A stretch of 64,000 nucleotides of DNA from Vitiosangium sp. GDMCC 1.1324 (GCF_003044305.1 NZ_PZOX01000005.1:195493-259492); one strand, 5' to 3'. Shown: positions 1,732 to 64,000, numbered from the stretch's first letter. The notes: generated from the letters alone by a model not told the origin. Numbers and translations: made by a program.

Positions 1732-1745
1732 CCACCCTCCTGTCA

Positions 1746-9685: not shown

Positions 9686-9694
9686 CGGACCTGC

Positions 9695-29657: not shown

Positions 29658-32600
29658 TTGTTCTTCCCGCCGATGCGAACCTCAGACTCCGACACGGCCC
29701 TGCCTGGCTTCGAGCGCAGTCTCGCCATCGTCATCGGTATCAACGCCTATTCCCACGGCATTCCCCCCCTCCACAACGCCGTGCGCGACGCCAACGCCGT
29801 CGCCGACTCCCTGGAGAGCCAGGGCTTCGAGGTGATCCGTCTCCTCGACTCCCAGGCAACCCTCTCATCCCTCTCCCTCCTGCTCTCCCATCACCTCCCC
29901 TCCCTTCCCTCGCCTGCCGATAGGATTCTCATCTACTTCGCCGGTCATGGCCTGGCCCATACCGACGAGCAGCACCAGTTCTCCGGGTTCCTGCTGCCCG
30001 CTGACGCTCGCCGCGACGACACCTCCTCCTACTGGCCCATGGCCGCCCTTCGCGACGCGCTGCGCCTGCTGCCCTGCCGCCACCTGCTGCTCATCCTCGA
30101 CTGCTGCTTCGCCGGGGCCTTCCCCCACTCCCCCTCGCGCGACATCCGCGCGCCCTCCCTCCCCGCGCCCCTCCACCTCGAGCGCTTCCGTCACTTCTCC
30201 TCCCGCCGCTCCTTCCAACTCCTTCTTTCCACCGCCCACGACGAGCTGGCCTCCGACAGGCTCCTGGCCAAATCCTCTCAGGAGTCCCTCGGCGACGGAC
30301 TCCACTCCCCCTTCGCCCTCGCGCTCCTCCAGGCCCTCCAACCCCATTCCCCCGCCGACTCCAATCAAGACGGCCTCCTCACCGCCGCCGAGCTCTACAC
30401 CTTCCTGCGCGACAGGCTCCTCTCCCTCGTCCCCTCCCACTGCCAGCAGACTCCCTCCCTCTGGCACCTGGACTGGCACGACGGAGGCGAGTTCCTCTTC
30501 CTCCTCTCCGACTCCCTCCCCTCCCTGCCTCCCGCCGCCCCGCTCTCCCAGCGCTCCAATCCCTACCTCGGCCTGCGCCCCTTCTCCTCCTCCCACCGCC
30601 ACCTCTTCTTCGGCCGAGAGCGCCTCGTCGACTCCCTCCTCGAGCGACTGAGGACCCAGCCCCTGCTGCTGCTGTGCGGCCCCTCCGGCGCGGGCAAGTC
30701 CAGCCTCGTCCATGCCGGCCTCCTTCCGAGCGTCTCCGAGGACCCCTCCTGGCGCGTCCCCCCATCCCTGCGCCCCTCGTCCCAGCCATTCCAGGCGCTG
30801 TCCTCCTGGCTCGCCTCGCTGGCTCCCAATACCGCGGCTCCCTCGGCCTCCGCCCTCGCCTCACGGCCCCGCGCCGCCGCCGACTTCCTCTCCTCCTTCC
30901 TCTCCCGCAACCCCGAGCGCGCTGTTCTCCTCGTCATCGACCCGCTCGAGGAGCTCGTCACCGCTTGCCTCGAGGACTCCGTGCGCCGCGCCTTCCTGCG
31001 CTCACTGTCCAGCCTCCTCCTGCTCTCGCACCCCCGGCTCCACCTGCTGCTGCTGCTGCGCTCGGACTTCGAGCCCCACTTCCTCTCCCTCCTCCAGGCC
31101 TCCGCCCTTCCCTCCGCACTCTGGCATGGCGCCCGTCTCAACCTCCCGCCCATGAACCGGGACGAGCTGCGCCGCTGCATCGAGAAGCCCGCGGAGTCCT
31201 GTGTCCTCTTCTTCTCCCCGGGCCTCGTCGAGCGCCTGTTGGATGACGTCGAGCAGATGCCCGGCGCCCTTCCCCTTCTCTCCGTAGCCCTCAGTGAGCT
31301 GTTCGGCGCCTACCTGGCCAGTGGCCGGGACGACCGCACCCTCTGCTTCGAGGACTACCACCACATTGGCGGTGGCATCGCGGGAGCGCTCCAGCGCCGG
31401 GCCGAGCTCGTCTTCTCCGGGCTGCCACCGCCCTCCACCGAAGGACAGCCCGCCCTGCCGCCTGTTCTCTCATCGGAGCTGCCCTCCTTCCAGCGCACCC
31501 TGCGCAACGTGCTGCTGCGCATGGTGTCTCCCGAAGGTGGCGAGCTGGCGCGCCGCAGGGTGCCGCGCGCCGAGCTGGAGTACCCCCACCACGAGGAGAA
31601 TTCCCGCGTCCTGCGTGTCCTGCGCACCCTGGAGGCCAGCCGTCTCGTGGTGGCCAGCGACGACGGAGGACCCTGTGTCGAGCCCGCTCACGATGCCTTG
31701 CTCTCCGCCTGGCCCAGGCTTCATGACTGGGCACGCCACGCTCAGCGCGAGCTACTCCTGCTGCGCCGTATCTCCCATGCCGCCTTCGAGTGGAACCGCC
31801 ACCATCGCGCAAGCGACTTCCTCTGGGCGGACGCGCGATTGGATCAGCTCGGTCTGGCGCTGACCTCCCCGCGCCGCACCGACGAGCCTCTCGCATTGCC
31901 CACCGTTTCACCTGGGGGCCAACCCACTGAGCCCTTGGCGCTCAACGCCGCGGAGAGTGGATTCCTCCGCGCCAGCGCGACACGCCGGCGCTTGCTGCGC
32001 ACCCGCCGCGGCGTGCTCGCTCTTACGTTGGCCATGATGCTCGTTGCGCTCACCGTGGCCGCCCTCTTCCAGGCCAACAAAGCTAACTTCAATGCCAGGG
32101 AAGCCCAGCGCCAGCAGCGCGCCGCCGAAGCCAGCGCGGAAGAGGCACGCAAGCAGAAGGAGGCCGCCGAGGCCAACGCCAGGGAGGCCCAGAAGCAGCA
32201 GCGCATCGCCGGCCTCAACGCCAAGGAAGCCCAGCGGCAGCAACAAGCAGCCGAGGCCAACCTCGAGGAGGCTCGAAAGCAACAAGAAGCCGCTGATGCC
32301 AACGCCCGAGAGGCGCTGCGACAGCAGAGGGTTGCCGAGGCCAATGCCACGGAGGCTCAGCGGCAAAAGCAGTTCGCCGACGCGAACGCCCAGGAAGCCC
32401 TGAAACAGAAGAATACCTCCGAGGCCAATGCCAGGGAGGCTCGCAAGCAACAGGAGGCCGCCGAAGCCAACTTCATGGAGGCTCAGCGGCAAAAGCAGTT
32501 TGCCGACGCGAACGCCCAGGAAGCCCTGAAACAGAAGAACACCTCCGAGACCAATGCCAGGGAGGCTCGCAAGCAACAGGAGGCCGCCGAAGCCAACTTC

Positions 32601-34949: not shown

Positions 34950-35480
34950 ATGGAGCGAAGGAAGAGGCGGAGTTTCACCCTGGAGTTCAGGGCCGATGCG
35001 GTCCGGCTGGTGCGTGAGGGCGGCAAGAGCTTGCCTCAGGTGGCAAAGGACCTGGACCTGACCGAGTCGGCCCTGCGCAACTGGGTACGCGAGACCGACG
35101 GCGACAAGGGCAAGGAGCCGGCAGGCGCGCTCTCCACGGCCGAGCGGGAGGAGTTGGTCAGGCTGCGCAAGGAAGTGCGCCATCTGGAGATGGAGCGTGA
35201 CTTCTTAAAAAAGCGGCGGCCTTCTTCGCGAAGGAGACCTCGAAGTGAAATTCGAGTTCATCGAGGCGGAGAAGGCTCATTTTCCCGTGGATTTCATGTG
35301 CCAGCAGTTGGGCGTCTCGCGCTCGGGCTACTATGCTTCACCAGAATCGGTGCTCGACATGCCCGGAATGCCTGCTCGGCTTCCCCGGAACGGCTGCTCA
35401 CCTTCCTCCGGAATCGCTGCTCGGCTTGGCCCGGAATCGGTGCTCGGCATGCCCCGGAACACGCACGCCTGAGCCGGGCC
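34950..35480 (+). mobile_element. Truncated IS3-family element. OrfA (HTH transposase subunit) is intact. The OrfB N-terminus is present after an A6G slippery site and then degenerates into short tandem repeats.
   Basis: OrfA reads MERRKRRSFTLEFRADAVRLVREGGKSLPQVAKDLDLTESALRNWV (IS3 OrfA HTH). The frameshift motif TTAAAAAAG lies at ~35207-35215. The OrfB start reads VKFEFIEAEKAHFPVDFMCQQLGVSRSGYYA and is then lost. It is followed by about 4 copies of a CCGGAATCG(G/C)TGCTCGGC-like 17-18-bp repeat (35330-35470). Confidence 0.55.
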
Positions 35481-43447: not shown

Positions 43448-43897
43448 CTACTCCTCGGCAGGGCTCTCCAGCACCTTGGCTACGCGAATCAGCCGCTTCA
43501 CCTCCCCGGGGCTCCACCCGCGAAGCATGCGCACGAACTGCCGCAGCTCGGGTGAGAGGCTCCCCTCGGGGGTGGGCTGCGCCAGCGTAGCGGCCACGTC
43601 CGTGCGGCTGAGCTCGAGCAGCACGTCGGCGGAGATTCCGAGCGTGAGGGCCAGCTTCCGCAGCGTGGGTACGGACGGCATCATGCCTCCGCGCTCAATG
43701 CGTCCGTAGACTTCGGGGGCGAGGCACGTCTGCTTCGCCACCTGGGCCTGGGTCAGCCCCAGCCGCTCGCGGACCGTGCGGCAGACTTCACCGAGAGACT
43801 TCTGAAGGTGTTCGAGTTCCATGGGTTGTCTCCACAGGGTTCCGGCCCGCCCGAGCGTTCCGGGGGTATTCGTCCTTTGCTGCTCGGCGCGGCTCAC
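43448..43897 (-). CDS. XRE-family helix-turn-helix regulator.
   Basis: LGEVCRTVRERLGLTQAQVAKQTCLAPEVYGRIERGGMMPSVPTLRKLALTLGISADVLL is a classic Cro/C1-type HTH. Confidence 0.55.
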   Translation of the reverse strand: MSRAEQQRTNTPGTLGRAGTLWRQPMELEHLQKSLGEVCRTVRERLGLTQAQVAKQTCLAPEVYGRIERGGMMPSVPTLRKLALTLGISADVLLELSRTDVAATLAQPTPEGSLSPELRQFVRMLRGWSPGEVKRLIRVAKVLESPAEE

Positions 43898-44298
43898 CTG
43901 GCGCGCGGCGCCCGCTTCCGGGCCTTCGCCGCGCGGGACTTCGCCACCATGGAGCGCGCCAGGGTGGCGAGCGCGGCGTGCTGCACCGGCGTCAACGTGC
44001 GAATTGTCCGGAGGAAGCGCCGCACCTCTGGGGTGTCATCCACTGCTTCGCTCGTCGGTACGAGCCAGGGTGGCGGCTGCTTCAACTGGAAGCCCAGCAG
44101 GGTGTTCGCATCCAGCTCCAGCGCGTCGCACAGCCGCAGCAGCGTGGGCACGCTGGGCAGCATTCGCGCCCGCTCGATGCGGCCGTAGACGGCAGCCGCG
44201 AGGTGAGTGCGTTCGGCCATCTGCGCCTGGGTGAGGCCCAGGCGCTGGCGGGTGTCCTTGGCTACCTTGGCGAGGTGGTGTTGCAGGGCCGTGGGCAT
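43894..44298 (-). CDS. XRE-family HTH regulator, paralogue 2.
   Basis: VAKDTRQRLGLTQAQMAERTHLAAAVYGRIERARMLPSVPTLLRLCDALELDANTLLG. It has a 4-nt overlap with the downstream paralogue. Confidence 0.55.
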   Translation of the reverse strand: MPTALQHHLAKVAKDTRQRLGLTQAQMAERTHLAAAVYGRIERARMLPSVPTLLRLCDALELDANTLLGFQLKQPPPWLVPTSEAVDDTPEVRRFLRTIRTLTPVQHAALATLARSMVAKSRAAKARKRAPRAR

Positions 44299-44310
44299 GA
44301 GCGCGCTCCC

Positions 44311-44724
44311 TCAACGTGCGGCCTGTTTGGGTGGGCGTGGGCCGGGCGCACTCCCCATGAAGCGGGCCACATTGGTGAGCGCGTCCACCTGCTTCGCCCC
44401 CAGCCGGCGCACGGAGCGCAGCAAGCGGCGAAGCGCGGGCCGCTCCTCGGAAGGAGGCGCGGCCTGGGCGAGCCACGGCGGCGGGGTGTCGGTGACGAGT
44501 CCCAACAACGAGTTGGCGTCCACGCCGAGAGCGCGGCACAACCGCAGGAGGGAAGGCACGCTCGGGAGCATGTGGCCACGCTCCAGGCGGGCGTACACCT
44601 CCGTGGCCAGCTCGGCGCGCTCGGCGACTTCCGCCTGCGTCAGCCCAGCACGAGCGCGTGCCTCACGGGCCGCGGCCCCCACGTGGCGTGCGAGCGAAAA
44701 GTCCCTCTTGTTGACGGAGCCCAC
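44311..44724 (-). CDS. XRE-family HTH regulator, paralogue 3, with a GTG start.
   Basis: REARARAGLTQAEVAERAELATEVYARLERGHMLPSVPSLLRLCRALGVDANSLLG. The 642-aa ORF 44311..46239 is an artefactual frame extension. Confidence 0.5.
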   Translation of the reverse strand: MGSVNKRDFSLARHVGAAAREARARAGLTQAEVAERAELATEVYARLERGHMLPSVPSLLRLCRALGVDANSLLGLVTDTPPPWLAQAAPPSEERPALRRLLRSVRRLGAKQVDALTNVARFMGSAPGPRPPKQAAR

Positions 44725-44732
44725 GGTGCACC

Positions 44733-45911
44733 TCAGTGAGCGTCTCCGGGCTCGCGGCCCGTCAGGTCCGGGGGCAGCGGAAACACGCCTTCTTCCACGT
44801 CCGGGTGGGCTTGCAGCTTCCGCAAGTCCGAGGCCTCCTTGAGGATGTCGCTCAGTTCCGCCTCGGCCTCCCTTGCACCATAGGGCCGCCCCGGACGAGC
44901 GTGCAGGAAGTCCCGCAGGTCGTAACGCATGTCGTCCGCCGACGGGTAGCGGTCCGAGGGGTTCTGCTGCAACGCCCGGGCGACAATCTTCTGCAGAGGA
45001 GCGGGCAGGTCCTTCGCCGCGTGCTCCACCTCTTCCGGGCCAAAGTGCAGCACGCGGTTGGCCAGCGCCTCCAAGGGCAGCAGTGTGGAGCGCTCGGCGC
45101 GCACCTCGGGAGGCAATCGCTCGTCGAGGTCCTCCCACAGTTTGTCGGGCGGGTCCAACGGGTAGCGCGCGAGCAGCATCTCGAGCAACACCAGGCCCAG
45201 CGAGAAGATGTCGGCCCTGCCGTCCAGCTTGCGGGGCGTGAGGGGGTCTCGCTGGCGGGCCTCCGGCTTGAGGAAGCCGCGGAGGACTTCCGGAGCGATG
45301 TAGGCCGGGTCTCCCCGCAGCAGCCCACGGCGCGTGGGAATGCGGCCGAGCAGCTCCGAGTAGGCCGCGCCGAAGTTGGTGAGCTTGACGCGGCCATTCT
45401 CCCCCAGGCGGATGCGCATGGGGCCCACGGCGCGGTGGACGAGCTTGAGGGGGTTGCCGTCCTCGTCCTCGCAGCGGTGCGCGTAGTCGAGCGCGTCGGC
45501 CACCTCGCCGGCCACGTACGCGGCGAAGTCGGGGCTCAGCCTGCGCCCCACCAACCAGGCAGCGTCCATGAGGGTGAGGAGGAAACAGCCGCGCAGGTGC
45601 TCCATGACGATGTAGGGCACCTCGTCGTGCACCACGTAGCCGTACACGGTGGCGATGTTGGGGTGGCGCAGGGTCTTGGAGAGCGTCACCTCCTCCAGCG
45701 CCCGGTGCCGGGCCTCGCGCCCGTGCTCCATGACAATGGGCTTGAGGACGATGAGCTTCACTGGGCCGCCTCCAAGCGGCTCTCGCGTGGCGAGCAGGAG
45801 GGTGTCGTAGTCGGGGTGCGCGACGAGGCGGCGCACCACCTCGTAGCGAAAGTCGCCCACGGTGAAGGACGTGAGGGGCATGGGCCCGCCGGGTTTCTTC
45901 GGTTCGGACAT
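44733..45911 (-). CDS. Protein-kinase-like protein, a predicted pseudokinase.
   Basis: The kinase fold is recognisable (VKLIVLKP, TLRHPNIATVYGYV, APEVLRG). The catalytic loop is HRAVGP (HRD to HRA) and DFG is replaced by TNFG, so both catalytic Asp residues are lost. Confidence 0.55.
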   Translation of the reverse strand: MSEPKKPGGPMPLTSFTVGDFRYEVVRRLVAHPDYDTLLLATREPLGGGPVKLIVLKPIVMEHGREARHRALEEVTLSKTLRHPNIATVYGYVVHDEVPYIVMEHLRGCFLLTLMDAAWLVGRRLSPDFAAYVAGEVADALDYAHRCEDEDGNPLKLVHRAVGPMRIRLGENGRVKLTNFGAAYSELLGRIPTRRGLLRGDPAYIAPEVLRGFLKPEARQRDPLTPRKLDGRADIFSLGLVLLEMLLARYPLDPPDKLWEDLDERLPPEVRAERSTLLPLEALANRVLHFGPEEVEHAAKDLPAPLQKIVARALQQNPSDRYPSADDMRYDLRDFLHARPGRPYGAREAEAELSDILKEASDLRKLQAHPDVEEGVFPLPPDLTGREPGDAH

Positions 45912-45961
45912 GGAAGGCTCGTGGGAGTGAGGGAAGTGAAAAGGAGGTTGCGGCGGCGGAG

Positions 45962-47302
45962 TCAGTGGACGTTTCCCAACCCCGTCTCCGGCAACGGCGA
46001 GGGCTTGCCTGCCTCAACGCCAACAGGGCCCGGCAGCCGTCCAAGGTCGGCCGCATCCATGAGGATTTCAGCGGCTTCCTCGGCGGCCTCCTTCTCGCCG
46101 TAGGGCGTCTGAAGCGAGTGCAGGTAGTCGTACAAGTCAGTGTGCATGTCGCTCGAGGTGAGGTAGCGCTCGTCCGGGTTGTCTCGGAGGGCCCGCGCGA
46201 TGATTCGCCGGAGAGCCTCGGGCAGCTCGTCCGCCGCACGCCGCACCTCCGCAGGCCCGAAGTGCAGTACGCGATTGGCGAGCGTCTCCAGCCTCACGAG
46301 CGCCGCCTCGTCGCTGAGGACGCTGGAAGGGAAGCGCGCCTTGAGGTCGAGCCACAGCGGCTCGCGCTGGTTGCGCGGGTAACGCGCCAGCAACATCTCC
46401 AGCATCACCAAGCCTAGGGAGAAGACATCGGCCCTCTGGTCGAGCCCCGGGGGAGAGAGTGGATCTTCGTGGCCCTTCTCTGGCTGGAGAAAGCCGCGAA
46501 GGATTTCAGGAGCGGTGTAGGCCGCATCGCCTCGGACGGGTGCCCCTGGGGAGGGAGGATGCTCGAGCAACTCCGTGTACATGACGCCCAGGTGAGTGAG
46601 CTGAACGCGGCCGGTGACGCCCACGCGAATGCGCCGGGGACCAATGGCGCGGTGGACGAGGTGGAGGGGTTTCTCATCGTCCTTCTTGCCGTGGAGGTAG
46701 AGGAGTGCGTCCGCCAGCTCCGTGGCCGCGTACGCCACGAAGGAGGGGGACAGTCTGCGCCCCACCGCCACGGCCGCATCCAGCAGGGTGAGGAGGCAGC
46801 AGCCGCGCAGGTGCTCCAGGAGGATGTAGGGCCGCGTGTCGTCGAAGACGCAGCCCCAGACGCCAGCGAGGTTGGGATGGCGTGTAAGGCCCGCGCGCCG
46901 CACCTCCTCGATGCATCGGTCCACCGTCGCGGAGGGATACTCGTGCGGGAGGAAGGGCCTGAGCTCCACCAACCTGGGCTGGCCCTCCATCTCCGGGTAG
47001 CCGTTGAGGACGAGCTGGCGGGAGGCGAGCAGCCCCGACTCATAGTCGGGGTGGGTGCCCACGTCGCCGTGGACTTCGTAGCGGTAGCGGCCCCATTGGA
47101 AGCCGAAGCGTGGCGCGGGGCGCGGAGAGGAGACAGTCACGGTGGGAGTCCCGGGAGTGGAGGGAGTGCCTAATGAGTGACTACGAGGGCCGGGACGGCC
47201 ACGGGCCGCCATGTGTCCGTCTCGTCCTTCATGTAGAAGGTGCCCACCTCGAAAGTGCCCGCTCGGTAAGCCCCGTCCTGCACTCCCACGGGGCCCACGC
47301 AC
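45962..47302 (-). CDS. Second pseudokinase paralogue.
   Basis: LVHRAIGPRRIRVGVTGRVQLTHLGV. HRD has become HRA and DFG has become HLG. Confidence 0.5.
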   Translation of the reverse strand: MRGPRGSAGRGLPSGHFRGGHLLHEGRDGHMAARGRPGPRSHSLGTPSTPGTPTVTVSSPRPAPRFGFQWGRYRYEVHGDVGTHPDYESGLLASRQLVLNGYPEMEGQPRLVELRPFLPHEYPSATVDRCIEEVRRAGLTRHPNLAGVWGCVFDDTRPYILLEHLRGCCLLTLLDAAVAVGRRLSPSFVAYAATELADALLYLHGKKDDEKPLHLVHRAIGPRRIRVGVTGRVQLTHLGVMYTELLEHPPSPGAPVRGDAAYTAPEILRGFLQPEKGHEDPLSPPGLDQRADVFSLGLVMLEMLLARYPRNQREPLWLDLKARFPSSVLSDEAALVRLETLANRVLHFGPAEVRRAADELPEALRRIIARALRDNPDERYLTSSDMHTDLYDYLHSLQTPYGEKEAAEEAAEILMDAADLGRLPGPVGVEAGKPSPLPETGLGNVH

Positions 47303-47779
47303 TGCTGCTCCTTGCCGGTGAGCGCCCAGGCCAAGTAGCCATCAGGCCGCAGCACCACGAGGGGTTGGAACTCCTGGACGCGCCGGCCCAGCTCGGCCCG
47401 GGGAACGGCCTCAGTCTTGAGCGTCACGTCGAGCAGCAACACGTCCGCCACAAGCCACGGGGCATATTCTGAGGCCTTGGGCGGAAAGAGGTGGAAGTGT
47501 AGCCGGAGCTGCTTGGCCTCCTGGGGAGACAAGTCCCGGCCCCTGGGCAGTAGCTCCGTGGGGAGCCCGGCCTTGAGCAGCAGGACGGCGAACTCGTCCA
47601 GGTCCGCGAGCGCATCCCGGGTGGTGGCATACGCCGCGGGCGGCGCGTTGCTGGCGCAGGCCAGTGGGCACAGGAGCACGAAGGAGAGCGCGGCCAACAG
47701 GCCCGGCAGGAGACGGGCGGGACGCGCGCAGACACGAGCCCCCTCCCGACGCGAAAGAATTTCGCTCGGCACGATGGCA
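47170..47779 (-). CDS. Hypothetical secreted/lipoprotein; start uncertain.
   Basis: A hydrophobic N-terminus with LLCPLACASN resembles a lipobox. The ORF has coding-like GC3 bias. Confidence 0.3.
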
Positions 47780-48102
47780 CCTCCGAAAACACATGATGTG
47801 AATTGAACTGACGACCAAACAGGTAGCACAGCCAAAATAGGAAGGGAAGCCCCGCCCAACCGCTTACGTCAGACACGCAGTCCAACCAATCAGAGCGGCA
47901 GAAGCCTGCTTTTGAGAGAGCAGCGAGCTCCTCGGCGATTTGGAATCGATAAGTAAGTCGGCATGCCCCAACCCAGGAAGTCACGCCGGAAATCTGGCGT
48001 GAGACAGGCGGCGGAACGAAGTCAGAGACAAGAACGCCAGCCGCCCGGAACACAGGCGCGGAGCACCTACGGCTCCGTGCACAGGACGCTGATTGGGCCG
48101 CC

Positions 48103-56151: not shown

Positions 56152-57963
56152 TCACGTGGACCGGCTCCTTCCCGGGGCGTCGAGCAAGGTGCGGTGTTGG
56201 TCGAACAGCCCCTCGAAGAGCAGCCGCAGCTCGTCCTGGATTTGCTCCCGAGAGCACTCGTCCCAGCGGCGGAGCGCGAGCAGCAGCGCACGCACCCAGC
56301 CGGGCTCCTTCGTGCGAACCAGCTCCCTGCGGTAATAGAGGGCCAGTGTCAGGGTGTCGTTCTTGTCCAGCCCTTCCAACTTCACGCGCAGTTGGCTGTA
56401 GCTCTCGTGGGGATCCGGGAAGGTGGGCAGCCCCGCGACCTCGATGAACACCCGCTCCAACGCCGGCTGCTCCTCCCTGGCCAGAGCGGCCGTGGAGAAC
56501 CGGCAAGCATGGAAGAGCCAGATGAGGTAGCGCCGCAACCGCCGCTCGGGAAGGGTCTGGATGGGGCGCTCCGGCTCGAAGACGCGAACGCTCTCCAACG
56601 CGTTCCAGATGATGTTCGCGAGGGCGTGTGATGGAGGCTGGGCGGTCGCGGCCCGATGGCTCCGCCGCCAGGCCAATGCCACCTCGACGGAGACCACGTC
56701 CGCGTCGTAATCCACCGCCTCGAGCACCCACCCCGTGCGGCCACTGCCGCTGTAGCTGTAGGAGGTCAGGCCTCGCTGCTGGACATGGTAGGCCTCGTGG
56801 ACGAGGAGCAGCCGGATGCACTCGTCCCAATCTTCTTTCGAGCCCAGGCGCTGGCGCAGGGCCCGGAAGCCCTCCAGCAGGTCGACGGGGAACTTCCAGG
56901 TTCCGGCCTGATAGCGGAACAGGGGCGTCCTCTCCGTCGCGGGCGTGGTGTCGATTTGACTGTCCAGGAGGACCCGCCCCCCGAGCCGCTCGACCAGTGT
57001 CTGTTGCTCGGGTTGGCGCAGCCACTCGACCAACTGCTGGTGGATGCCGATCACCTTCTTGAGCTCTTCCTGGATCTCCTGCCACTGCTTGGAGGTGAGC
57101 GTCTCCTCCCGTGCTGCGGCCAGACGGCGCCGAGGGCTGATCTGATGGACGGCGAGATACTGGCCCTGCTCGCGATTGAAGTGGTGCAACCCCAGGGGGT
57201 GCTGGGTCTGGGCGTTGATGGCGGTCCCCAGCGCGGCGGCGAGGCTGCCGGGACAGTCCATGGCCAGGAGCACCGATCCGGCGCCCTCCAGCCGCTCGTG
57301 GAGGGTGTCGAGCACGGTGCGGAATTGCTCCACCGCCCGCGAGACCTCGCCAGGGTTCTGCAGGGCCCGCTCCGAGGTGCCTCGTACGGGCCGCAGGCAG
57401 ACCGTGGCCAGGATCTCCATGGGGTGGCGTGCCTTGAACTGCGCGAGCGCCGTGTCACGAATGGGGTTGGTGACCTCGACGATGAGCGCCACGTGCCCAC
57501 GGCCCTCCTGCCGCGCGGCGGGAAGACCCTCGACGGTGAAGTAGGGCTCCGGGGTGGAGGGATGGGATCGGTCCGCCATGAGCGACCAGGAACCATCCTC
57601 CCGCGACTGCTGATAGACATACAGCCGCCGGCGCGGCAGACACCACGCCAGGTGCAGCATCAACACCAGGGGCGCGCACCCGAACAGGTGGACGGGCAGG
57701 TCGAGCCCCAGCTCGCGCTCCCGGGCCAGGAGCGCCTCGGCGAACCGCTCGTTCTCATCGAAGGCCCAGCCCCAGTCCTGCTCCCGCTGGGCACGGACGA
57801 GCGTGTCCTTGTTGTACTCATGCAATACGCAGGACGCGACGTCCCGGTCCCCCTCGAAGCCACTGTGCTTCAACGCCTCGCGCGCGGTGTTCTCGGCCAC
57901 GGGGCGGTCGTGCTCGTAGCGAAGGATGAGGGCCTGGGTCCTGGGTGTCAGGGCAATGACCAT
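56152..57963 (-). CDS. Large type III-associated accessory protein of unknown function. It is a candidate cyclic-nucleotide sensor/effector (SAVED/CARF-like region is a hypothesis) with a C-terminal HExxH...E zincin-like motif.
   Basis: The 603-aa ORF ends 60 nt upstream of cmr1 on the same strand and directly follows the SMODS nucleotidyltransferase gene. The C-terminal region contains LLVHEAYHVQQRG...WVLEAVDYD. There is no signal peptide. Domain assignment is not alignment-verified. Confidence 0.45.
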   Translation of the reverse strand: MVIALTPRTQALILRYEHDRPVAENTAREALKHSGFEGDRDVASCVLHEYNKDTLVRAQREQDWGWAFDENERFAEALLARERELGLDLPVHLFGCAPLVLMLHLAWCLPRRRLYVYQQSREDGSWSLMADRSHPSTPEPYFTVEGLPAARQEGRGHVALIVEVTNPIRDTALAQFKARHPMEILATVCLRPVRGTSERALQNPGEVSRAVEQFRTVLDTLHERLEGAGSVLLAMDCPGSLAAALGTAINAQTQHPLGLHHFNREQGQYLAVHQISPRRRLAAAREETLTSKQWQEIQEELKKVIGIHQQLVEWLRQPEQQTLVERLGGRVLLDSQIDTTPATERTPLFRYQAGTWKFPVDLLEGFRALRQRLGSKEDWDECIRLLLVHEAYHVQQRGLTSYSYSGSGRTGWVLEAVDYDADVVSVEVALAWRRSHRAATAQPPSHALANIIWNALESVRVFEPERPIQTLPERRLRRYLIWLFHACRFSTAALAREEQPALERVFIEVAGLPTFPDPHESYSQLRVKLEGLDKNDTLTLALYYRRELVRTKEPGWVRALLLALRRWDECSREQIQDELRLLFEGLFDQHRTLLDAPGRSRST

Positions 57964-58002: not shown

Positions 58003-58889
58003 TCAGGGCCCCCGCTGCCGGTAGAACTCGCCGAAGAGCTCCCGCAGGCGCCCGTGGGCCCGCGGAGGATCCGAGTCGCTCTCGTCCCTCGCGAGCCGCA
58101 CCTGTCTCGCCGCGCTCGCCAGCAACTGATGGGCCGCCGTCTTCTGGTTGGAGGTCATCCGCTCATCCACGGCGGGGCCCAGCCCGGCGGGATCCGGACA
58201 CGTCCCCAGCACCTTCTGGCTCAGGTGGGAGAAAAGCCTCTCCAGCCCGTCGAGGTAGTCCCCGGGGGGCGAGGGAAACGCGCTGTAGCTCATCACCTCC
58301 AGATGGAACGAGCCCAGGGGGCTGGACGGGTGATGTCGGTTCCAATGCTTGACGGCCTTGAGGAGCGGCTTGAGCTTCTTGCCTGCGGCCTCGTTGGCCT
58401 CCGTGCTCAGAGTCTGGTGGATGCGGGGATTGGTGGAGATCCATCGCCCCGTTTCCCGCTCGGGGATGAGGAAGGTGTCCCGCCCCGGCACCGAGAACGC
58501 GGGCACGACGTCGAACTCGTTTCCCGAGTCCGTGAAGCCGATGTGCACCGAGTGCTGCTGGAGGATCGGAAGGCTCTTGTTGGACCACTTGTCGTGAAGC
58601 GCCTGCTGGACCTGCTTGAGCGCATCATCCGCCGTCAGCCCCCCTGCGAGGTGAATCGGGGTGGATGAGAGGACATCTCCCCCAGCACGACGAAGATGTC
58701 GATGTCATGCAGTGGCCGGATAGCGGTGTGGCGGCTGTAGGAACCGGAGAGAAAGTCCGTCTTCGTGTTGAGCCGCTTCCGCAAGGCCTCGCGCACCAGG
58801 GTGTGCTGCCGGCTGACCTCGTCCCGCTGTCCCTGCGTCAATTCCAGGGACTGGATGAACTTCTCCAGGCCCTCACGCACGCTCCACAT
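58003..58889 (-). pseudogene. SMODS-type (CBASS cGAS/DncV-like minimal) nucleotidyltransferase interrupted by a frameshift at a G6 homopolymer. This is either a pseudogene or a sequencing indel.
   Basis: The N-fragment (58635..58889) carries the SMODS signature GSYSRHTAIRPLHDIDIFVVL. The C-fragment (58003..58548) continues with ...ADDALKQVQQALHDKWSN...SGNEFDVVPAF, the second acidic motif. The two fragments are out of frame around CAGGGGGGCTGA. One extra or missing G restores a single ~295-aa ORF. Confidence 0.6.
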
Positions 58890-58968
58890 GTCCGCTCCTT
58901 GGATTCTTCCGTATCCAAGAAGAAGGACGTCAAAAGCGGCGGCGGACCATCGCGGTCCGGTGCTTTTT

Positions 58969-59808
58969 TCAAGGCAGGAGGCTCAGGACGTCCGCCATGG
59001 AGGGGCGTTCCGGGGCCTTCTTGGCCAGCAGGCGAGCCAGCAGCGAGCGAAGGGCCACGGGCGCCACCCCCTCCAGGAGCTCCAGCGGGGGCGGCCGGGC
59101 CACATGACAGAACATCAGGCTTTGCTGCGCCTCGGCGATGAAGGGCGGGCGGCCCGTGAGCAACTGGAATCCGAGAATTCCGAGCGAGTAGACATCGGCC
59201 CGGTCATCCACTGTCTTGGAACGAGTCCACTGCTCGGGGGCCCTGTACTCCCCGGTCCCTAGGAGCGCGCTCCCCGCCGTCGAGACCGGGAGTGCGGCGA
59301 GCCCGCTCCCGGTGGCGAGCCTCTTGGCGAGCCCGAGGTCGGCGAGCTGGACCTTCCACGCCCCCGGCTCCCGCTGGGAGACCAGGATGTTGGCGGGCTT
59401 CAGGTCCCGGTGAACGAGGCCCCGCGCATGCAACAGGGCCAGGACCTCCGCCAGTTGGCGGAGCACCTGGACGCAGTCGCGAACCGCGAGGCGGCCTCCC
59501 TCATGGACGAGCGCATGGTGGAGATCTTCCGGTTGCCACGCCAGGACCATGAAGGGACGGCCCTCCAGGAGCACTCCGGATGCCTGGGCACGGACCAGGT
59601 GCGGGTGCCGGAGCTCCTGGAGCGTCCGCGCCTCATTGAGGAAGCGGGCCACCACCTCGGGGTGGAGGCACCACTCCGGACTCAACACCTTCACCGCTAC
59701 GAACTCGCCCGAAGTGGCGTGCCGCCCCGCGTAGACCTCACTCGTGGCGCCCACCGCCACACAGCGCACGATGAGGTACTCACCCACGCATGTGCCAGCT
59801 GCCAGCAT
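58969..59808 (-). CDS. Small Ser/Thr protein kinase (catalytic domain only).
   Basis: YLIVRCVAVGATSEVYAG...AVKVL...HRDLKPANILV...ADLGLA...GTGEYRAPE. The in-frame N-terminal extension to 60216 is probably not translated, because the ECF sigma gene occupies that region in another frame. Confidence 0.55.
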   Translation of the reverse strand: MLAAGTCVGEYLIVRCVAVGATSEVYAGRHATSGEFVAVKVLSPEWCLHPEVVARFLNEARTLQELRHPHLVRAQASGVLLEGRPFMVLAWQPEDLHHALVHEGGRLAVRDCVQVLRQLAEVLALLHARGLVHRDLKPANILVSQREPGAWKVQLADLGLAKRLATGSGLAALPVSTAGSALLGTGEYRAPEQWTRSKTVDDRADVYSLGILGFQLLTGRPPFIAEAQQSLMFCHVARPPPLELLEGVAPVALRSLLARLLAKKAPERPSMADVLSLLP

Positions 59809-59819
59809 CGAGGGCTCCG

Positions 59820-60626
59820 TCAGCTCGAGGCGGAAGGCTGAAGGGCGCGCAGCTTCTCCAGCCAGTGCAGCAGCCCCCGAAGCTCCTCGGCGCACTCCGG
59901 ATAGCCCGCGGCGAAGGCCTCGGGCTCCAGGGGTCTCCCCTCCTCGCGCCGTCTGAAATAGGCGGCCAGGGCCGCATCCACCCGGTTGCGGGAGAGGACC
60001 GCATCGGGATTCTCCTCGGACTCCTCTTCCGCCGTGCCTTCCATGCGCGCACGGAGGGCCCGCAGACCCCGCTGCAGCAGCGACTCCACGGCTTCCTTGG
60101 AGCGGCCGAGTCGCTGCGCGATGCCTCCCACCGTCGAGTCCTGGAGGTAGTAGAGCGACAGGGCTTCGCGCTGGGCGTCGGGGAGCTCGTAGAAGTGCGT
60201 CAACAATCGACGCCACTCCTCCTGGTGGGAGGAGACCTGGCTCGGGCTGCGCTGGGGAGCGGGCAGGCCCTGGGCTTCGGAGCTGTCCAGGGGGAGCGCT
60301 CCCCCGTCATCCCGCTTCTGGCTGCCCGCCTTGCGTAGCATGTCCACCCAGCGCGAGTGGAGCACCTGCTCCAGCCAGACCCGCCATTCTCCCTCGGCCG
60401 TGCCCCGGAAGGAGGCGAAGCGCTGGAACGCCCCCAGCGCCGCCTCCTGGGCGACATCCGAGGGCCGAATTCCTCCCGGCGGCGAGCGCCCAATGCGCCG
60501 GGCCGCCCACCTGTCCAGATCGGACTGGCTGCGGCGGAGCAATTCCTCCCAGGCGCCCTGCTCCCCCTCTCGCACCCGGTGCAGCAGCGCCTCGATGGAC
60601 AACTCAGACAGGATGGATGAGCTCAT
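59820..60626 (-). CDS. ECF-type sigma-70 family factor with a C-terminal extension.
   Basis: Region 2 reads LLRRSQSDLDRWAARRIG...DVAQEAALGAFQRF. Region 4 reads PDAQREALSLYYLQDSTVGGIAQRLGRSKEAVESLLQRGLRALR. An ATGA overlap with the upstream kinase-STAND gene is present. Confidence 0.6.
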   Translation of the reverse strand: MSSSILSELSIEALLHRVREGEQGAWEELLRRSQSDLDRWAARRIGRSPPGGIRPSDVAQEAALGAFQRFASFRGTAEGEWRVWLEQVLHSRWVDMLRKAGSQKRDDGGALPLDSSEAQGLPAPQRSPSQVSSHQEEWRRLLTHFYELPDAQREALSLYYLQDSTVGGIAQRLGRSKEAVESLLQRGLRALRARMEGTAEEESEENPDAVLSRNRVDAALAAYFRRREEGRPLEPEAFAAGYPECAEELRGLLHWLEKLRALQPSASS

Positions 60627-63600
60627 GGGCAGCCCTCGAACACGAAGCGTATATCTTCTCCATCCCTGTCCTTGAACTCCCTGGCCAGGGCGCATCGCGC
60701 GGTGTGCAGGCGCGTGGCCTGTTCCCCGTCGCCCATGAGCGCCTCCTGTCCGGCCACAGCGCGAAGCCACACCAGGGCCTGGCGTTTGCCCAGGGGCTCC
60801 CCTTCCCTCAACCGCTCGCCCAATTCCACCGCCTCCTGGTAGTTCCGCTCCGCCTCCCCATACTGGCCCCGGGCGGCCTGGAACGAGGCCACGTCCACGA
60901 GGACCCAGGCGAGCACCCACCGGCTGTATTGATCCCCCGCCGGAGCATCATGGAAGCTGCTCCGTGCCAGGCGCAACGCCCGGTCGAGGAACCCCCGCGC
61001 CGCGTCTGGCTCGCCCGCCGCACGCGCCACGTTCCCGCGCATGCCGAGCACCTGGGCGAGGAGGGCTTTGTTATAGGACTCGCCGTTCTGTTCGTGGAGC
61101 CGGGTGGCCTTGTCCAGGAGGTCGGCGGCGGCGTTCCACCTCCCCGCCGCGAGCTCGCACTCGGCCAGCTCGGAGTCACTGACCGCCAGGGTGCGCCGGT
61201 CGTCCACCGGGTCATCCGTCGCCACCTCGGGACGCTCCAGTCCCCGGACGGCTTCGGCGAAATGCTCGCAGGCCAGGTCGAGGTGCCCCCGCGCCTGTTC
61301 CACCTTCCCGCGCTTGGAGTGCTCGAGGGCCACCAGCCGCGACAGCCTCCCATCGTCAGGCCGATCGGCGAGGGCCGCGCGCAGTTCCTCTCGAGCCTCG
61401 TCCAGGAACAGGCTGGCTCGTGCCAGGGTTCCATCATGGAAGGCGAGGTCCGCCTGCCGATGGATGAAACGGACGGCCACGCGCCGCACTTCGAGACTCT
61501 CGCGTTGCTGGGGCGTCAGCCCGGCCAGGGACTTACGAAAGCCTTCCAACGTGGGCTCGCGCAACCGCAGCGTGTACGGCAGCCAGCTGAGCCTCCAGTC
61601 CAGGTCCCCGGCGAACTCGTCCATCGTGTCGACGTACTGCCGCAGGGAGGCCTCCGCGAGCCGACGCTCGTGGCTCGCGAGGGCCGCGTAGAAGACGATG
61701 GCCAGGAGGGCCAGCCCCCCCGCGGCGGCGAGCAGCCCCCGGGTGAGCGTGCGCCGCCGCTCCAACCGCCGCGCCGCCTCCAGGAAGCGCTCCACTTCGG
61801 GGCTCTCTCGCGGGCTCCCGGCGCGGCGGGCGCGGGCAGGCGAAGCGCCGTCCCGGTAGTGGGTGAGCAGGGTGCCCGTGGGCAGTCCCTCCACCGGACA
61901 GCCCGCCTGGTGCCAGACATGCGCCGCGGCCTCCAGGTCCGCGTGGCGCTCCAGCCGCGTCCGCTCCTCCTCAATCCACGAGGCAATGGAGCGCACCCGG
62001 TACAGCAGCAGCTCGTGCGCCAGCTCGACGCGCTGCTCCGTGGCACTAGCTCCGCCCGACAGAAGCAACAACCGCAACCCCGCCGGAGCCTCCCGCGGGG
62101 TGCCATGGGACAGCCCGGAGAGCCGCAGCAGCACCTCCTCGGCCCGCGCATCGTCTCCCCCCGCGGCGAGCACCTCGCGCCGCGAGCGGGGGCGGCGGGT
62201 GTCGGGCACGCCCCGGCCCGTCCGCACCAGGGACAGAATCATCCCCCTGGCACGCTCGCGCCCCTCCTCTCCCAGACCGTCGAGCAGCGCCTCGGCCTGC
62301 TGGGCCAGGGCTCCCCCCACTCCCCCGAGCCGCTCGTAGTGCGCGTGGGTCAGTGGCGCGCCGCCGCTCAACGCCCACAGCGCCCGCAGCGCGTGCCCGA
62401 GCAGCGGCAGGCGGCCCGCCTCGCCCCGCGCGTCCTGCACCATACGCTCGGCCAGACCTTCGCCCAACCGGAGCCCCGCGCCGCGGGCCAGGCCCTGGAT
62501 GACCTGGGCCAGCGCGGCGGGCTCCATGGGCAGCAGGGGGAAGCGCGCGGCGTGCGGGAGGTGACGCGCCAGGGCCGGCACCTGCTCGATGCGATGCAGG
62601 AAGTCGGCGCGCACGCAGGTCAGCAGCCGCACCGGCGAGCCGGGGGCCTCGAGCGCGGCGCCCAGCAGCGCGTCCACCCATGGGCACTCCGCCGCGCCGA
62701 GCGTGAACAGCTCCTCCAGGGGCTCGAGCACCAGCAACAGGCGGCGCCCCTCGGGCGCATGGGCCGTGGCGAGGTCACGAAGGGCCCCGGCGTCCGCCCG
62801 CAGGGCGCGCTCCACCGTCTCCGCGCCCTCCCCCGCTCCCAGGCGAAGGGGGCCCGAGGCGAGCGCCCGGGCCAGGGCGCGGATCGGCTCGTCCCCCGGG
62901 CGAAGGCACACCACGCACCACTCCGGCGCCCGGGCGAGCCGGGGCAACAGGCCCGCCTGGAGCAACGAGGACTTGCCCACCCCGCTGGGCCCCTCCACCT
63001 GGAGCCACCGCCGCGGCCCCGTCTGGAGCTCTCCGAGCAGCGCGGACAGGCTCCGCAGCTCCTCGTCACGGCCGAAGAACAGCTCCGCCTGCGCCTCGGT
63101 GAAGGAGGCCAGTCCGGGAACGGGGCACGTCTCCGGATCGTCCTCCCACGCCCGGCCGAGCATGTCCTGGCAGCGCCGCATCGCCGGCCGCCGTGAGGGC
63201 TCCTTGGCGAGCATGGAGGCGATGAAGGCGCACAGGCCGCCGGGCAGCGAGGGGGCGAGCTCGCGCAGCGGGGGCGGCTCCTCGTGCACATGCGCGGAGA
63301 GGACCTCGACGGGGTCCTCGGACACGAAGGGCGTGCGGCCCGCGAGCAACTCGTAGAGCACCACGCCCAGGGCATAGACGTCCGCGCGGGAGTCCACGCG
63401 GGCGGCGCTCCGGAACTGCTCCGGCGCCATGTACGGGTAGGTGCCGATGAAGGCCGACTCGTGGGTATGGGCCAGGGTGGCGCCGAGCGCGTCCACCTCC
63501 ACGGGCGGCAGCTTGGCGATGCCAAAGTCCAGCAGCTTGACGCGGTGGCCAGCAAGGGCGCCTTCCCGGGGACACAGGAAGACGTTCTCCGGCTTCAGGT

Positions 63601-63964
63601 CCCGGTGGACGATGCCCCGGGCGTGGACCTGCGCCAGGATGTCCGCGAGTTGGGCGCCCACGTCCAGGGCGTCCCGGAGGGGCACCGGCTCCGCGTGCTG
63701 GCGCATCCACTCGCGCAGGGACAGCCCCGGGAGGTATTCCATGGCGAGGAACGCCGTGTCCGCCTGCCGCGCCGCGTGCAGGACCCGCACCACCCCCGGG
63801 AGCTCGAGCCGGGCCAGGACCTGGGCCTCCTGGAGGAATCGGGCAACGAGGTGCGGCTCCCGGGCCGCCTCGGGGGACAGGACCTTGAGGGCCACGCGTT
63901 GCCCCTGGGGCTCGAGCTCGGCGGCATAGACGCTCGCCATGCCCCCGCTGCCGAGCAGGTGCAA
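60623..63964 (-). CDS. Ser/Thr kinase - STAND (NB-ARC/AAA) NTPase - TPR repeat fusion protein. The N-terminus may extend to or beyond the window end.
   Basis: The kinase domain has LLHLLGSGGMASVYAA, ALKVL, HRDLKPENVFL, DFGIAK and APEQ. Then come FFGRDEELRSL...LQVEGPSGVGKSSLLQAGLL (Walker A) and C-terminal TPR-like helical repeats. A kinase-frame peptide GPYRLLHLLG precedes the first Met. Confidence 0.7.
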   Translation of the reverse strand: MHLLGSGGMASVYAAELEPQGQRVALKVLSPEAAREPHLVARFLQEAQVLARLELPGVVRVLHAARQADTAFLAMEYLPGLSLREWMRQHAEPVPLRDALDVGAQLADILAQVHARGIVHRDLKPENVFLCPREGALAGHRVKLLDFGIAKLPPVEVDALGATLAHTHESAFIGTYPYMAPEQFRSAARVDSRADVYALGVVLYELLAGRTPFVSEDPVEVLSAHVHEEPPPLRELAPSLPGGLCAFIASMLAKEPSRRPAMRRCQDMLGRAWEDDPETCPVPGLASFTEAQAELFFGRDEELRSLSALLGELQTGPRRWLQVEGPSGVGKSSLLQAGLLPRLARAPEWCVVCLRPGDEPIRALARALASGPLRLGAGEGAETVERALRADAGALRDLATAHAPEGRRLLLVLEPLEELFTLGAAECPWVDALLGAALEAPGSPVRLLTCVRADFLHRIEQVPALARHLPHAARFPLLPMEPAALAQVIQGLARGAGLRLGEGLAERMVQDARGEAGRLPLLGHALRALWALSGGAPLTHAHYERLGGVGGALAQQAEALLDGLGEEGRERARGMILSLVRTGRGVPDTRRPRSRREVLAAGGDDARAEEVLLRLSGLSHGTPREAPAGLRLLLLSGGASATEQRVELAHELLLYRVRSIASWIEEERTRLERHADLEAAAHVWHQAGCPVEGLPTGTLLTHYRDGASPARARRAGSPRESPEVERFLEAARRLERRRTLTRGLLAAAGGLALLAIVFYAALASHERRLAEASLRQYVDTMDEFAGDLDWRLSWLPYTLRLREPTLEGFRKSLAGLTPQQRESLEVRRVAVRFIHRQADLAFHDGTLARASLFLDEAREELRAALADRPDDGRLSRLVALEHSKRGKVEQARGHLDLACEHFAEAVRGLERPEVATDDPVDDRRTLAVSDSELAECELAAGRWNAAADLLDKATRLHEQNGESYNKALLAQVLGMRGNVARAAGEPDAARGFLDRALRLARSSFHDAPAGDQYSRWVLAWVLVDVASFQAARGQYGEAERNYQEAVELGERLREGEPLGKRQALVWLRAVAGQEALMGDGEQATRLHTARCALAREFKDRDGEDIRFVFEGCP

Positions 63965-64000
63965 CAGCCTGTAGGGTCCGACATGGGTGGGGAGGGAGGA

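Follow-up and report, generated by a model that had tools for sequence, protein, structure and literature searches.

Introduction

The silencing and deployment of CBASS (antiphage signaling systems that are based on cyclic oligonucleotides) and of type III CRISPR systems are largely obscure. To our knowledge, the DdvS/DdvA pair of Myxococcus xanthus is the only worked example of the control of such systems by a sigma factor of the extracytoplasmic function (ECF) type; kinase-activated ECF sigma factors are known, but we are aware of none that acts on CBASS or CRISPR. Here, we describe a group of genes that bears on this question, found in a 64,000-nucleotide (nt) stretch of the genome of Vitiosangium sp. 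GDMCC 1.1324 (GCF_003044305.1 NZ_PZOX01000005.1:195493-259492), which is called the window throughout. Three neighboring genes encode a Ser/Thr kinase fused to a STAND NTPase (STK1), an ECF sigma factor, and a small Ser/Thr kinase (STK2). In a mobile immune cassette of myxobacteria, these would be the regulatory part, and a CBASS-like pair, a CD-NTase and a SAVED-HExxH protease, often joined by a type III-B Cmr operon, would make up the remainder. To the reading that a kinase-activated ECF sigma factor licenses transcription of the CBASS and Cmr genes, we give an even chance on the sequence evidence presented below.

Several described systems resemble parts of this cassette. In M. xanthus, DdvS drives promoters of CD-NTase/SAVED-effector and Cmr genes in an island of CBASS and type III-B genes (PMC11506125; PMC6061681). 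DdvS is held by DdvA, a transmembrane, zinc-binding anti-sigma factor of TPR-CHAT type, and is freed by proteolysis. In EcfP, an ECF43 sigma factor of Vibrio parahaemolyticus, the sequence STTA replaces the DAED motif, and phosphorylation of the second Thr by the kinase PknT activates the protein (PMC8999054). The ECF43 factor EcfK of Xanthomonas citri, phosphorylated by PknS, is reported to drive a type VI secretion system (PMC8999054; PMC13147305). Kinase-associated ECF groups typically have no anti-sigma factors (PMC7826278). In the type III-B CalpL-CalpT-CalpS system, made up of a SAVED-Lon protease, an anti-sigma protein, and an ECF sigma factor, CalpL cleaves CalpT, whereupon CalpS is released (PMC11229360). 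The type III-B locus of Haliangium ochraceum encodes SAVED-CHAT, PCaspase, PCc-sigma, PCi, and PCk, and PCaspase cleaves PCc-sigma in vitro (bioRxiv 10.1101/2023.06.23.546230). In the same work, Steens et al. noted, but did not analyze, CBASS-like operons of Myxococcota with cyclases, a PCk-like kinase, and a sigma-70 protein (10.1101/2023.06.23.546230).

The cassette described here shares with the DdvS/DdvA island its myxobacterial host, an island-encoded ECF sigma factor, and a membrane-spanning sensor with a TPR-containing periplasmic domain, the periplasmic location being predicted in our case; the promoter-like elements described below may correspond to the DdvS-driven promoters. It differs in having no DdvA-type anti-sigma gene, its sole transmembrane (TM)/TPR protein being the kinase-STAND protein, which has no CHAT match; it has instead two Hanks-type kinases, one of them STAND fused, a sigma factor with a C-terminal extension, and a SAVED-HExxH effector in place of the CHAT-SAVED protein. 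The likeness to ECF43 factors, drawn from motif and neighbors, lies in the missing anti-sigma partner, an adjoining transmembrane Ser/Thr kinase, a Ser/Thr-containing motif at the tentatively aligned position of DAED, and a conflict-system output, which is predicted for the cassette. Unlike those factors, the cassette sigma factor reads RPSD (one Asp kept) rather than STTA, is accompanied by two kinases, carries a C-terminal module of about 60 amino acids (aa), and has a predicted regulon of CBASS/Cmr genes.

A sequence-only reading of the window had likened the genes to the CalpL-CalpT-CalpS circuit. As an analogy this stands: in both cases, genes for an ECF-like sigma factor and for a protease fused to SAVED lie together in a type III setting, which would supply a transcriptional branch of cyclic oligoadenylate (cOA) signaling. 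The parts differ, however: the cassette has no Lon domain and no separate CalpT-like anti-sigma gene, it contains kinases, it usually contains a CD-NTase, and Cmr is optional. The cassette consists of STK1, sigma, STK2, CD-NTase, and SAVED only, with no extra gene for a CalpT-like substrate. With the Haliangium locus it shares membership of the Myxococcota and, beside cmr1-6, genes for a sigma factor, a Ser/Thr kinase, and a protease fused to SAVED, but its protease is of the HExxH and not the CHAT type, PCaspase and PCi are missing, and there are two kinases, one with a STAND-TM-TPR architecture. As in CBASS with SAVED effectors (Cap4, Cap5, and PADLOC 'SAVED_peptidaseM48'), a CD-NTase is paired with a SAVED effector; in contrast, where those systems have Cap2/Cap3 or HORMA/TRIP13 as accessory genes, the cassette has a sigma factor and two kinases. 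The searchable literature yielded no account of the five-gene cassette, of its promoter element, or of the module shared by sigma factor and kinases.

Results

Organization of the regulatory genes

The cassette and the adjoining module occupy the following positions in the window.

60623..64000, minus strand: STK1, Ser/Thr kinase, nSTAND1 NTPase, one TM helix, and TPR (Pfam Pkinase, nSTAND1, TPR_12)
59820..60626, minus strand: ECF sigma factor, 268 aa (Pfam r2/r4/ECF; ATGA overlap)
58969..59808, minus strand: STK2, Ser/Thr kinase consisting of the kinase domain only, 279 aa (Pfam Pkinase, E 1e-37)
58921..58969, minus strand: conserved bipartite promoter-like element (MAFFT alignment, nhmmer)
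58003..58889, minus strand: CD-NTase (SMODS), the Pfam SMODS match being split over two frames
56152..57963, minus strand: SAVED sensor with a fused HExxH (zincin-like) domain at its C terminus, 603 aa
48681..56092, minus strand: type III-B module, cmr1 to cas6 (Pfam RAMPs, Cmr2_N/Cas10 palm2, Cas_Cmr3, Cas6; starts and overlaps)

The kinase, sigma factor, and small kinase that the sequence-only reading had placed on one strand were all present there, and inspection of the junction confirmed the ATGA overlap of the STK1 stop with the sigma start. The junction of sigma and STK2 has an 11-nt gap carrying GGAG instead of an overlap. The length of 1113 aa given for the first kinase is an artifact of the window edge and thus a lower bound: the called open reading frame (ORF), 60623..63964, comprises Pkinase (aa 3-266), nSTAND1 (aa 281-688, E 9e-85), and TPR (aa 927-1002) matches in Pfam, the frame is still open at base 64000, where it reads ...SSLPTHVGPYRLLHLLGSGG (also given as VGPYRLLHLLGSGG), and the A. 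violaceum orthologue has 1125 aa. Since the frame is open to the last base, the start codon should lie just outside the window, a few codons off. The genes had also been said to run directly into the SMODS/Cmr genes; in fact, a 79-nt intergenic region (58890-58968) with the conserved promoter-like element intervenes. In this DNA of about 70% GC, periodicity of GC content at third codon positions (GC3) backed the frames of STK1, both SMODS fragments, SAVED, cas10, cmr3, and cmr6, while the sigma and STK2 ORFs failed the GC3 filter and rest on Pfam matches and homologues.

STK1 contains a single hydrophobic helix (aa ~755-775) between STAND and TPR, preceded by an Arg-rich stretch and kept in 10 of 10 homologues. 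The positive-inside rule would place the TPR domain in the periplasm and the kinase and STAND domains in the cytoplasm. Both kinases are catalytically intact by their motifs: STK1 has its catalytic Lys, HRD, DFG, and APE, all kept across its homologues, and the catalytic Lys, HRD, DLG, and PE of STK2, together with an activation-loop 'ST', are kept in 11 of 11 sequences. STK1 matched the PADLOC model 'C3a189 kinase' over its whole length (E 1e-151), which indicates that this kinase family has already been flagged as defense associated; the model's name may point to neighborhoods of type III CRISPR genes.

The regulatory genes are conserved beside a SAVED effector

Twenty non-redundant myxobacterial loci (numbered with the prefix L) were assembled by searches from sigma homologues and from SAVED homologues. 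A genome scan gave 6 loci and a metagenome scan 5, the remaining context coming mostly from exact-protein look-ups. The loci were from Vitiosangium, Archangium, Myxococcus, Corallococcus, Pyxidicoccus, Stigmatella, Hyalangium-like metagenomes, and Sorangium; the independent lineages are modest in number and all Myxococcota. In 20 of 20 loci, sigma, STK1, and STK2 adjoined a SAVED effector, in three gene orders and between unrelated flanks. The components were distributed over the 20 loci as follows.

Sigma factor: 20
STK2: 20
STK1: 20 (STAND segment missing in one)
SAVED-HExxH, ~600 aa: 19
CD-NTase: 18
Cmr: 10 (not in the flank in 9, unknown in 1)

The order STK1-sigma-STK2-CD-NTase-SAVED was found in Archangium, Myxococcus, Pyxidicoccus, Corallococcus, and further contigs, down to a sigma identity of 37-41%; the closest sigma homologues were from Archangium. 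Sorangium So ce291 and a JGI contig have the order STK1-SAVED-CD-NTase-sigma-STK2. The arrangement of Stigmatella aurantiaca (L015) has no CD-NTase and runs SAVED, Cap4-like SAVED, STK1, sigma, STK2, cmr1, cas10, and so on. The full cassette together with cmr1-6 occurs in C. macrosporus HW-1 (L016) and in three metagenomic contigs, and M. stipitatus (L017) has the cassette with a Cap4-like SAVED protein and without Cmr. In Myxococcus sp. RHSTA-1-4 (L003, 7659-14088), the entire STAND segment (query aa 302-656) is missing from STK1; the locus retains sigma, the two kinases, and the CD-NTase, and its only SAVED protein is a 491-aa Cap4-like one, with no SAVED-HExxH protein. The same strain encodes a SAVED-HExxH homologue on a different contig.

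The tie between the sigma/kinase genes and the adjacent defense genes that the sequence-only reading had proposed is therefore supported by synteny in every locus, as regards the CD-NTase and SAVED genes. The more specific expectation of sigma-kinase-Cmr synteny was borne out in part only, as Cmr accompanies the cassette in 10 loci, while the flank of 9 others has none. Of the two observations named beforehand as speaking against the linkage, the presence of sigma/kinase genes without Cmr elsewhere was thus made, and loss of synteny in relatives was not. The constant partner of the sigma factor and kinases is the CD-NTase and SAVED pair, and Cmr is a frequent optional extension. Where Cmr occurs, its link to the cassette is nevertheless real, as cmr1 in Stigmatella (L015) directly follows STK2 behind the conserved element.

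These distributions bear on the possibility, also raised in the sequence-only reading, that housekeeping or developmental regulators adjoin the defense genes by coincidence in a kinase-rich genome. Myxobacteria are rich in Ser/Thr kinases and ECF sigma factors, and the window holds at least three other kinase genes. However, synteny was seen in every locus, whether the search led from sigma to SAVED or from SAVED to sigma. In addition, the flanks vary by genus and include ATP synthase, nonribosomal peptide synthetase, and ABC transporter genes, indicating that the cassette moves as a unit. The recurrence of the same gene set in all 20 loci is far beyond chance, and we regard coincidental adjacency as highly improbable.

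A related explanation is that two independent systems share a defense island. Here, the STAND kinase and STK2 would themselves act in abortive infection, as effector or as sensor (compare Stk2, PD-T4-6, and PCk), with no regulatory tie to CBASS/Cmr, and the sigma factor would be the substrate or the regulator of the STAND kinase. Sensing of infection is typical of STAND NTPases, the PCk kinase of H. ochraceum seemed toxic, the window contains further kinase and STAND genes, and both cassette kinases score strongly against PADLOC PD-T4-6, mad6, and MkoA. These matches, however, cover the generic kinase domain only, and a shared island predicts neither the tight operon junctions nor co-occurrence in 20 of 20 loci over three gene orders and varied flanks. 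We therefore consider this explanation quite unlikely.

The sigma factor lacks an anti-sigma partner and shares a module with kinases

The sigma factor matched Pfam Sigma70_r2 (31-101), r4/r4_2 (147-193), and Sigma70_ECF (11-195). It consists of sigma2 and sigma4 only, without sigma1.1 or sigma3, as is the case for ECF (group 4) factors, and its PDB matches were RpoE, SigK, SigE, and SigW, with no Ddv protein by name among the hits. An AlphaFold2 (AF2) model showed two helical domains and an extension, with a layout of sigma2, a disordered linker ending in an invariant SPSQ, sigma4, and a three-helix C-terminal extension; at a predicted template modeling score (pTM) of 0.40, the packing of the domains is unreliable. 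In the alignment of sigma homologues, S56, D57, P128, and S129 were invariant, the first two in 22 sequences. Aligned to RpoE in a register that is ambiguous, the position of DAED in sigma2.2 reads R54-P55-S56-D57, so that the first acidic residues are gone and the final Asp stays.

Among the called neighbors of sigma in the 20 loci, none had an anti-sigma Pfam domain, and in all of the loci two kinases flank the sigma gene. The C-terminal extension reported in the sequence-only reading is present at aa ~205-268 (roughly 59823-60012), is kept in all homologues, and is modeled as three helices. It had no Pfam match and no meaningful PDB match, including none to anti-sigma domains; the candidate identification of the extension as an anti-sigma domain was dropped on these grounds and because the AF2 packing is uninterpretable.

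A profile of the extension gave 585 hits among 1.84 billion representatives, the strongest being the C termini of sigma-sized proteins; in ten clusters that were looked up, every named member was from Myxococcota. The motif also lies at the extreme N terminus of many long proteins. Of these, 10 were sampled, and every one proved to be a Ser/Thr kinase, the sensor domains being of the WD40, TPR, FGE-sulfatase, or NMT1 kind; STK1 and STK2 themselves are without the module. The occurrence of one module on kinases elsewhere and on the sigma factor here supplies a Rosetta-stone argument for a direct sigma-kinase interaction. Phosphorylation-gated control, as suggested in the sequence-only reading, is plausible, given the missing anti-sigma gene, two catalytically intact kinases, a degenerate DAED motif with an invariant Ser, and an extension shared with kinase N termini.

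A promoter-like element precedes the effector genes

Aligning the regions upstream of the gene that follows STK2 (in Sorangium-type loci, STK1) with MAFFT revealed a conserved block of about 50 nt. In the window it comprises an A-tract (about 58963-58969), a -35-like GCGATGG (58947-58953), a 17-nt spacer, and a -10-like CGTC (58926-58929), with the CD-NTase ATG ~37 nt downstream. An nhmmer profile found 12 further copies beyond the training set. These lie upstream of SAVED in L004, L005, L006, L012, L015, L016, and L017; upstream of the second CD-NTase of L004, where each copy of the gene has its own element; and upstream of the CD-NTase of L016 and L017. One more copy follows the SWIM gene of L012, and another immediately precedes cmr1 of Stigmatella (L015). 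The L012 copy near the SWIM gene (20456-20515, M. landrumensis) is weak (E 0.07-0.08) and lies downstream of SNF2/SWIM genes; it hints at a predicted regulon that extends beyond the cassette in some genomes.

The consensus of 26 copies is AGAAA(A)-N~10-GCGAnGG-N16/17-CGTC(Y)T. The GCG and the final TC are invariant; the A, the GG, and the CG of CGTC are conserved in at least 90% of copies; and the spacer is fixed at 16/17 nt, with an unconserved sequence. All 26 copies are intergenic and co-oriented with the downstream gene, and the motif lies ~35-45 nt upstream of start codons. A bipartite motif of fixed spacing with a CGTC -10, in this position and orientation, is what marks a promoter of the ECF type. 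Weak support comes from the sigma4.2 helix, whose variant (RS versus KT) tracks the -35/spacer variant. A stricter pattern of the element had one exact match in the window and, with one mismatch allowed, was not enriched over shuffles; a loose regular expression for the motif was of no use in DNA of 70% GC.

A structural role for the element was also weighed. In copies of the Archangium type, the element overlaps an A-tract, GC hairpin, and T-run, which lie at 58943-58969 in the window and were reported on the plus strand by the terminator scan; they may also separate the regulatory from the effector operon, as insulator or terminator. As the conserved function of the element, a terminator or structured RNA was rejected, because RNAalifold on the 26 copies gave 0 pairs, that is, no conserved RNA fold, and because the copies upstream of SAVED have no T-run. 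At 58890-58925 (minus strand), a hairpin formed by CUUCUUGGAU/AUCCAAGGAG is predicted in the CD-NTase 5' untranslated region (-14.3 kcal/mol, z -2.5), in which the Shine-Dalgarno sequence AAGGAG would be masked; the inverted repeat is visible only in copies of the Archangium clade.

An autoregulatory copy upstream of STK1 was sought and not found, with no nhmmer copy and no motif shared by eye in 10 upstream regions. From the lack of an element before STK1, expression of the regulators seems to be separate where the gene order is the common one. The SAVED-CD-NTase-sigma-STK2 operon of Sorangium-type loci does have the element ahead of it, and the position of sigma and STK2 behind the element would amount to autoregulation. 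No copy was found upstream of cmr1 in the window or in L004, L006, L007, and L016. The upstream gap of cmr1 in the window is 59 nt with no terminator called, and no minus-strand terminator was called between 58969 and 48681; this is consistent with a single transcription unit of roughly 10 kb from the element to cas6.

The CD-NTase and SAVED-HExxH pair

As in CBASS, a CD-NTase and a cyclic-oligonucleotide-sensing effector lie in one operon, and the pair is present in 18 of 20 loci. The CD-NTase orthologue of L001 matched the PADLOC CBASS 'Cyclase' model end to end (E 8e-80). In the window, the gene is broken by a -1 frameshift in a length-variable loop (about 58635-58650) ending in a G6 run at about 58641-58646, and the orthologues of L001-L007 are intact and in frame. 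The frameshift may be a sequencing (homopolymer) error or a real or phase-variable inactivation, the latter leaving Cas10 as the sole cOA source. Two tandem CD-NTase copies occur in L004 (11816-13656) and in L018 (4442-6306).

The SAVED protein is 100% identical to a protein of Vitiosangium sp. GDMCC 1.1324; together with the Archangium origin of the best sigma homologues and the DUF2380/DUF2381 genes of the window, this identity marks the source as an archangiacean myxobacterium. The SAVED protein contains HEAYH and matched PADLOC 'SAVED_peptidaseM48' (E 3e-171). It had no CHAT match, and PADLOC SAVED_CHAT was reached at 1e-8 only, via the SAVED part. H389, E390, H393, E415, D418, D420, and D422 were invariant in 29 homologues, and the motif HExxH…LExxDYxAD was kept even in the 25-30% identical proteins of L010, L013, L014, and L021. 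The SAVED fold was nearest to those of Cap5, SAVED-CHAT, and CalpL; for the protease fold, structure comparison gave no confirmation. On the metagenome contig L021 (Ga0157374_10004449, 2-11247), a 30% identical SAVED-HExxH protein follows a bacterial HORMA protein and a TRIP13-like AAA protein (type III CBASS). This CBASS adjoins a type I-C cas operon (cas3, cas5d, csd1, cas7), and the sigma factor and kinases are absent. The presence of a homologue in a HORMA/TRIP13 system indicates that the protein family is a general type of CBASS effector.

The pairing of this protein with the sigma factor in 19 of 20 loci, the rearranged ones included, raises the alternative that the sigma factor acts on the output side. 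A cOA-activated SAVED-HExxH protease would cleave the sigma factor, for example at its extension or its SPSQ linker, or one of the two kinases, and so free an active sigma factor that reprograms transcription. Both the conserved extension, set off by a disordered linker, and the proximity of the SAVED fold to Cap5, SAVED-CHAT, and CalpL fit this alternative. In Stigmatella, which has no CD-NTase, Cas10 would feed the SAVED proteins, and the Cap4-like nuclease-SAVED killing effector of several loci leaves the protease free for signaling. There are also precedents, namely CalpL-CalpT-CalpS (PMC11229360) and the cleavage of PCc-sigma by PCaspase in a III-B locus with a Ser/Thr kinase. Several observations argue in the other direction, however. 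There is no separate anti-sigma gene, the extension is homologous to kinase N termini rather than matching an anti-sigma domain in Pfam or PDB, and the fold of the protease lacks structural confirmation. The L003 locus retains sigma and kinases without SAVED-HExxH, and the distant SAVED-HExxH protein of the HORMA/TRIP13 CBASS has no sigma factor, showing that neither needs the other. Cleavage would also leave unexplained both the promoter-like element before the SAVED and CD-NTase genes and the need for two kinases. On balance, we consider release of sigma by the protease possible but doubtful; it may coexist with kinase-gated transcription as a positive-feedback loop.

A model for kinase-gated expression of the cassette

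The reading that we favor, in which a kinase-activated sigma factor licenses the effector genes, would proceed as follows. STK1 would serve as a bitopic receptor kinase that senses an envelope or infection cue and that, directly or via STK2 as a soluble relay, phosphorylates an intrinsically inactive ECF sigma factor. With neither an anti-sigma partner nor the acidic DAED patch (RPSD, Ser56), the sigma factor would resemble the EcfP/PknT class, and its three-helix C-terminal module would couple it to the kinases. Once phosphorylated, it would bind RNA polymerase and fire the putative GCGAnGG-N16/17-CGTC promoters of the CD-NTase and SAVED genes, and read-through in the window would carry transcription across cmr1-6 and cas6. 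Cyclic oligonucleotides made by the CD-NTase or by Cas10 would then activate the SAVED protease. Gene content, synteny, the conserved element, and the motifs and homologies are observed; we infer who phosphorylates whom, which promoter the sigma factor reads, and the nature of the signal.

A number of points weigh against this reading. The steps of the mechanism are predictions from sequence. The phosphosite assignment is tentative, since D57 is still present and S56 falls in an insertion of the HMMER alignment. The -35-like GCGAnGG has none of the 'AAC' typical of ECF promoters, the covariation of sigma4.2 with the -35 is confounded by phylogeny, and the element could be read by a different sigma factor or by some DNA-binding regulator. 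Copies of the Archangium type overlap the A-tract/hairpin/T-run, which may be a terminator of the regulatory operon. Control of Cmr depends on assumed read-through, as the Cmr loci besides L015 have no element before cmr1, and in the window the CD-NTase is frameshifted. Finally, the co-encoded sigma factor of H. ochraceum is a protease substrate in vitro, which favors the alternative of cleavage by the protease.

An arrangement that combines the two routes is a two-input circuit, in which STK1, reporting a cue at the envelope, and STK2 phosphorylate the sigma factor and so turn on the CD-NTase, SAVED, and Cmr genes, and the cOA-activated SAVED metalloprotease acts back on the sigma-kinase complex, for example by clipping the kinase-type docking module on sigma. 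Full or sustained transcription of the immune genes would in that case depend on both phosphorylation and nucleotide signaling. This circuit is unlikely in our estimation. Were it true, it would be a bacterial loop from kinase to transcription factor to second messenger to protease, joining the innate immunity of CBASS to the adaptive immunity of type III systems.

If kinase-gated licensing is correct, the cassette would represent a second and mechanistically different solution to the control of these systems, in which eukaryote-like kinase signaling is passed via a STAND receptor kinase onto a sigma factor. With it would come a defined promoter motif, together with candidates for the phosphosite (Ser56) and for the docking module. 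The unexplained PCc-sigma and PCk of the Haliangium protease cascade may follow the same logic. Moreover, the same SAVED protease has a CD-NTase or Cas10 as its partner, which is evidence from nature for the interchangeability of signaling parts between CBASS and type III systems.

The type III-B module and other features of the window

The type III-B module consists of seven genes.

56092-54764, minus strand: cmr1
54767-52980, minus strand: cas10/cmr2
52983-51808, minus strand: cmr3
51811-50900, minus strand: cmr4
50948-50490, minus strand: cmr5
50512-49385, minus strand: cmr6
49388-48681, minus strand: cas6

With cmr1-6, a Cas10 palm domain, and cas6, it is of type III-B, and tblastn showed it to be collinear with the modules of L006, L007, L016, L018, and L019. 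No CRISPR-like repeats were found anywhere in the 64-kb window by Tandem Repeats Finder, repeat finding, or a k-mer script; a CRISPR array must therefore lie outside the window or be absent.

The region directly past cas6 (43451-47859, minus strand) may be another defense module: an ORF of 229 aa in it matches PDC-M17A, a PADLOC model of a candidate system, and it also encodes two helix-turn-helix proteins of XRE type and two divergent kinase-like proteins, of 446 and 392 aa. On the plus strand, 29658-34835 encodes a second nSTAND1 protein (1725 aa), which has WD40 propellers and, internally, tandem repeats of 42 and 126 nt; STAND conflict-system genes are abundant in that part of the window. 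A 641-aa protein with a caspase (Peptidase_C14) domain is encoded at 9698-11620 (minus strand), ~47 kb from the cassette, and is not syntenic in the other loci. Between 20000 and 30000, the GC content is 0.59-0.64, against about 0.70 elsewhere; this stretch, which includes 22593-23837, a DDE_5 transposase, and large repeat-rich ORFs with 159- and 165-nt tandem repeats, suggests acquired DNA. DUF2380/DUF2381 genes are also present in the window, and ~5.5 copies of the 23-nt unit GCTTCCCCGGAATCGCTGCTCG lie in an apparently non-coding stretch at 35335-35459.

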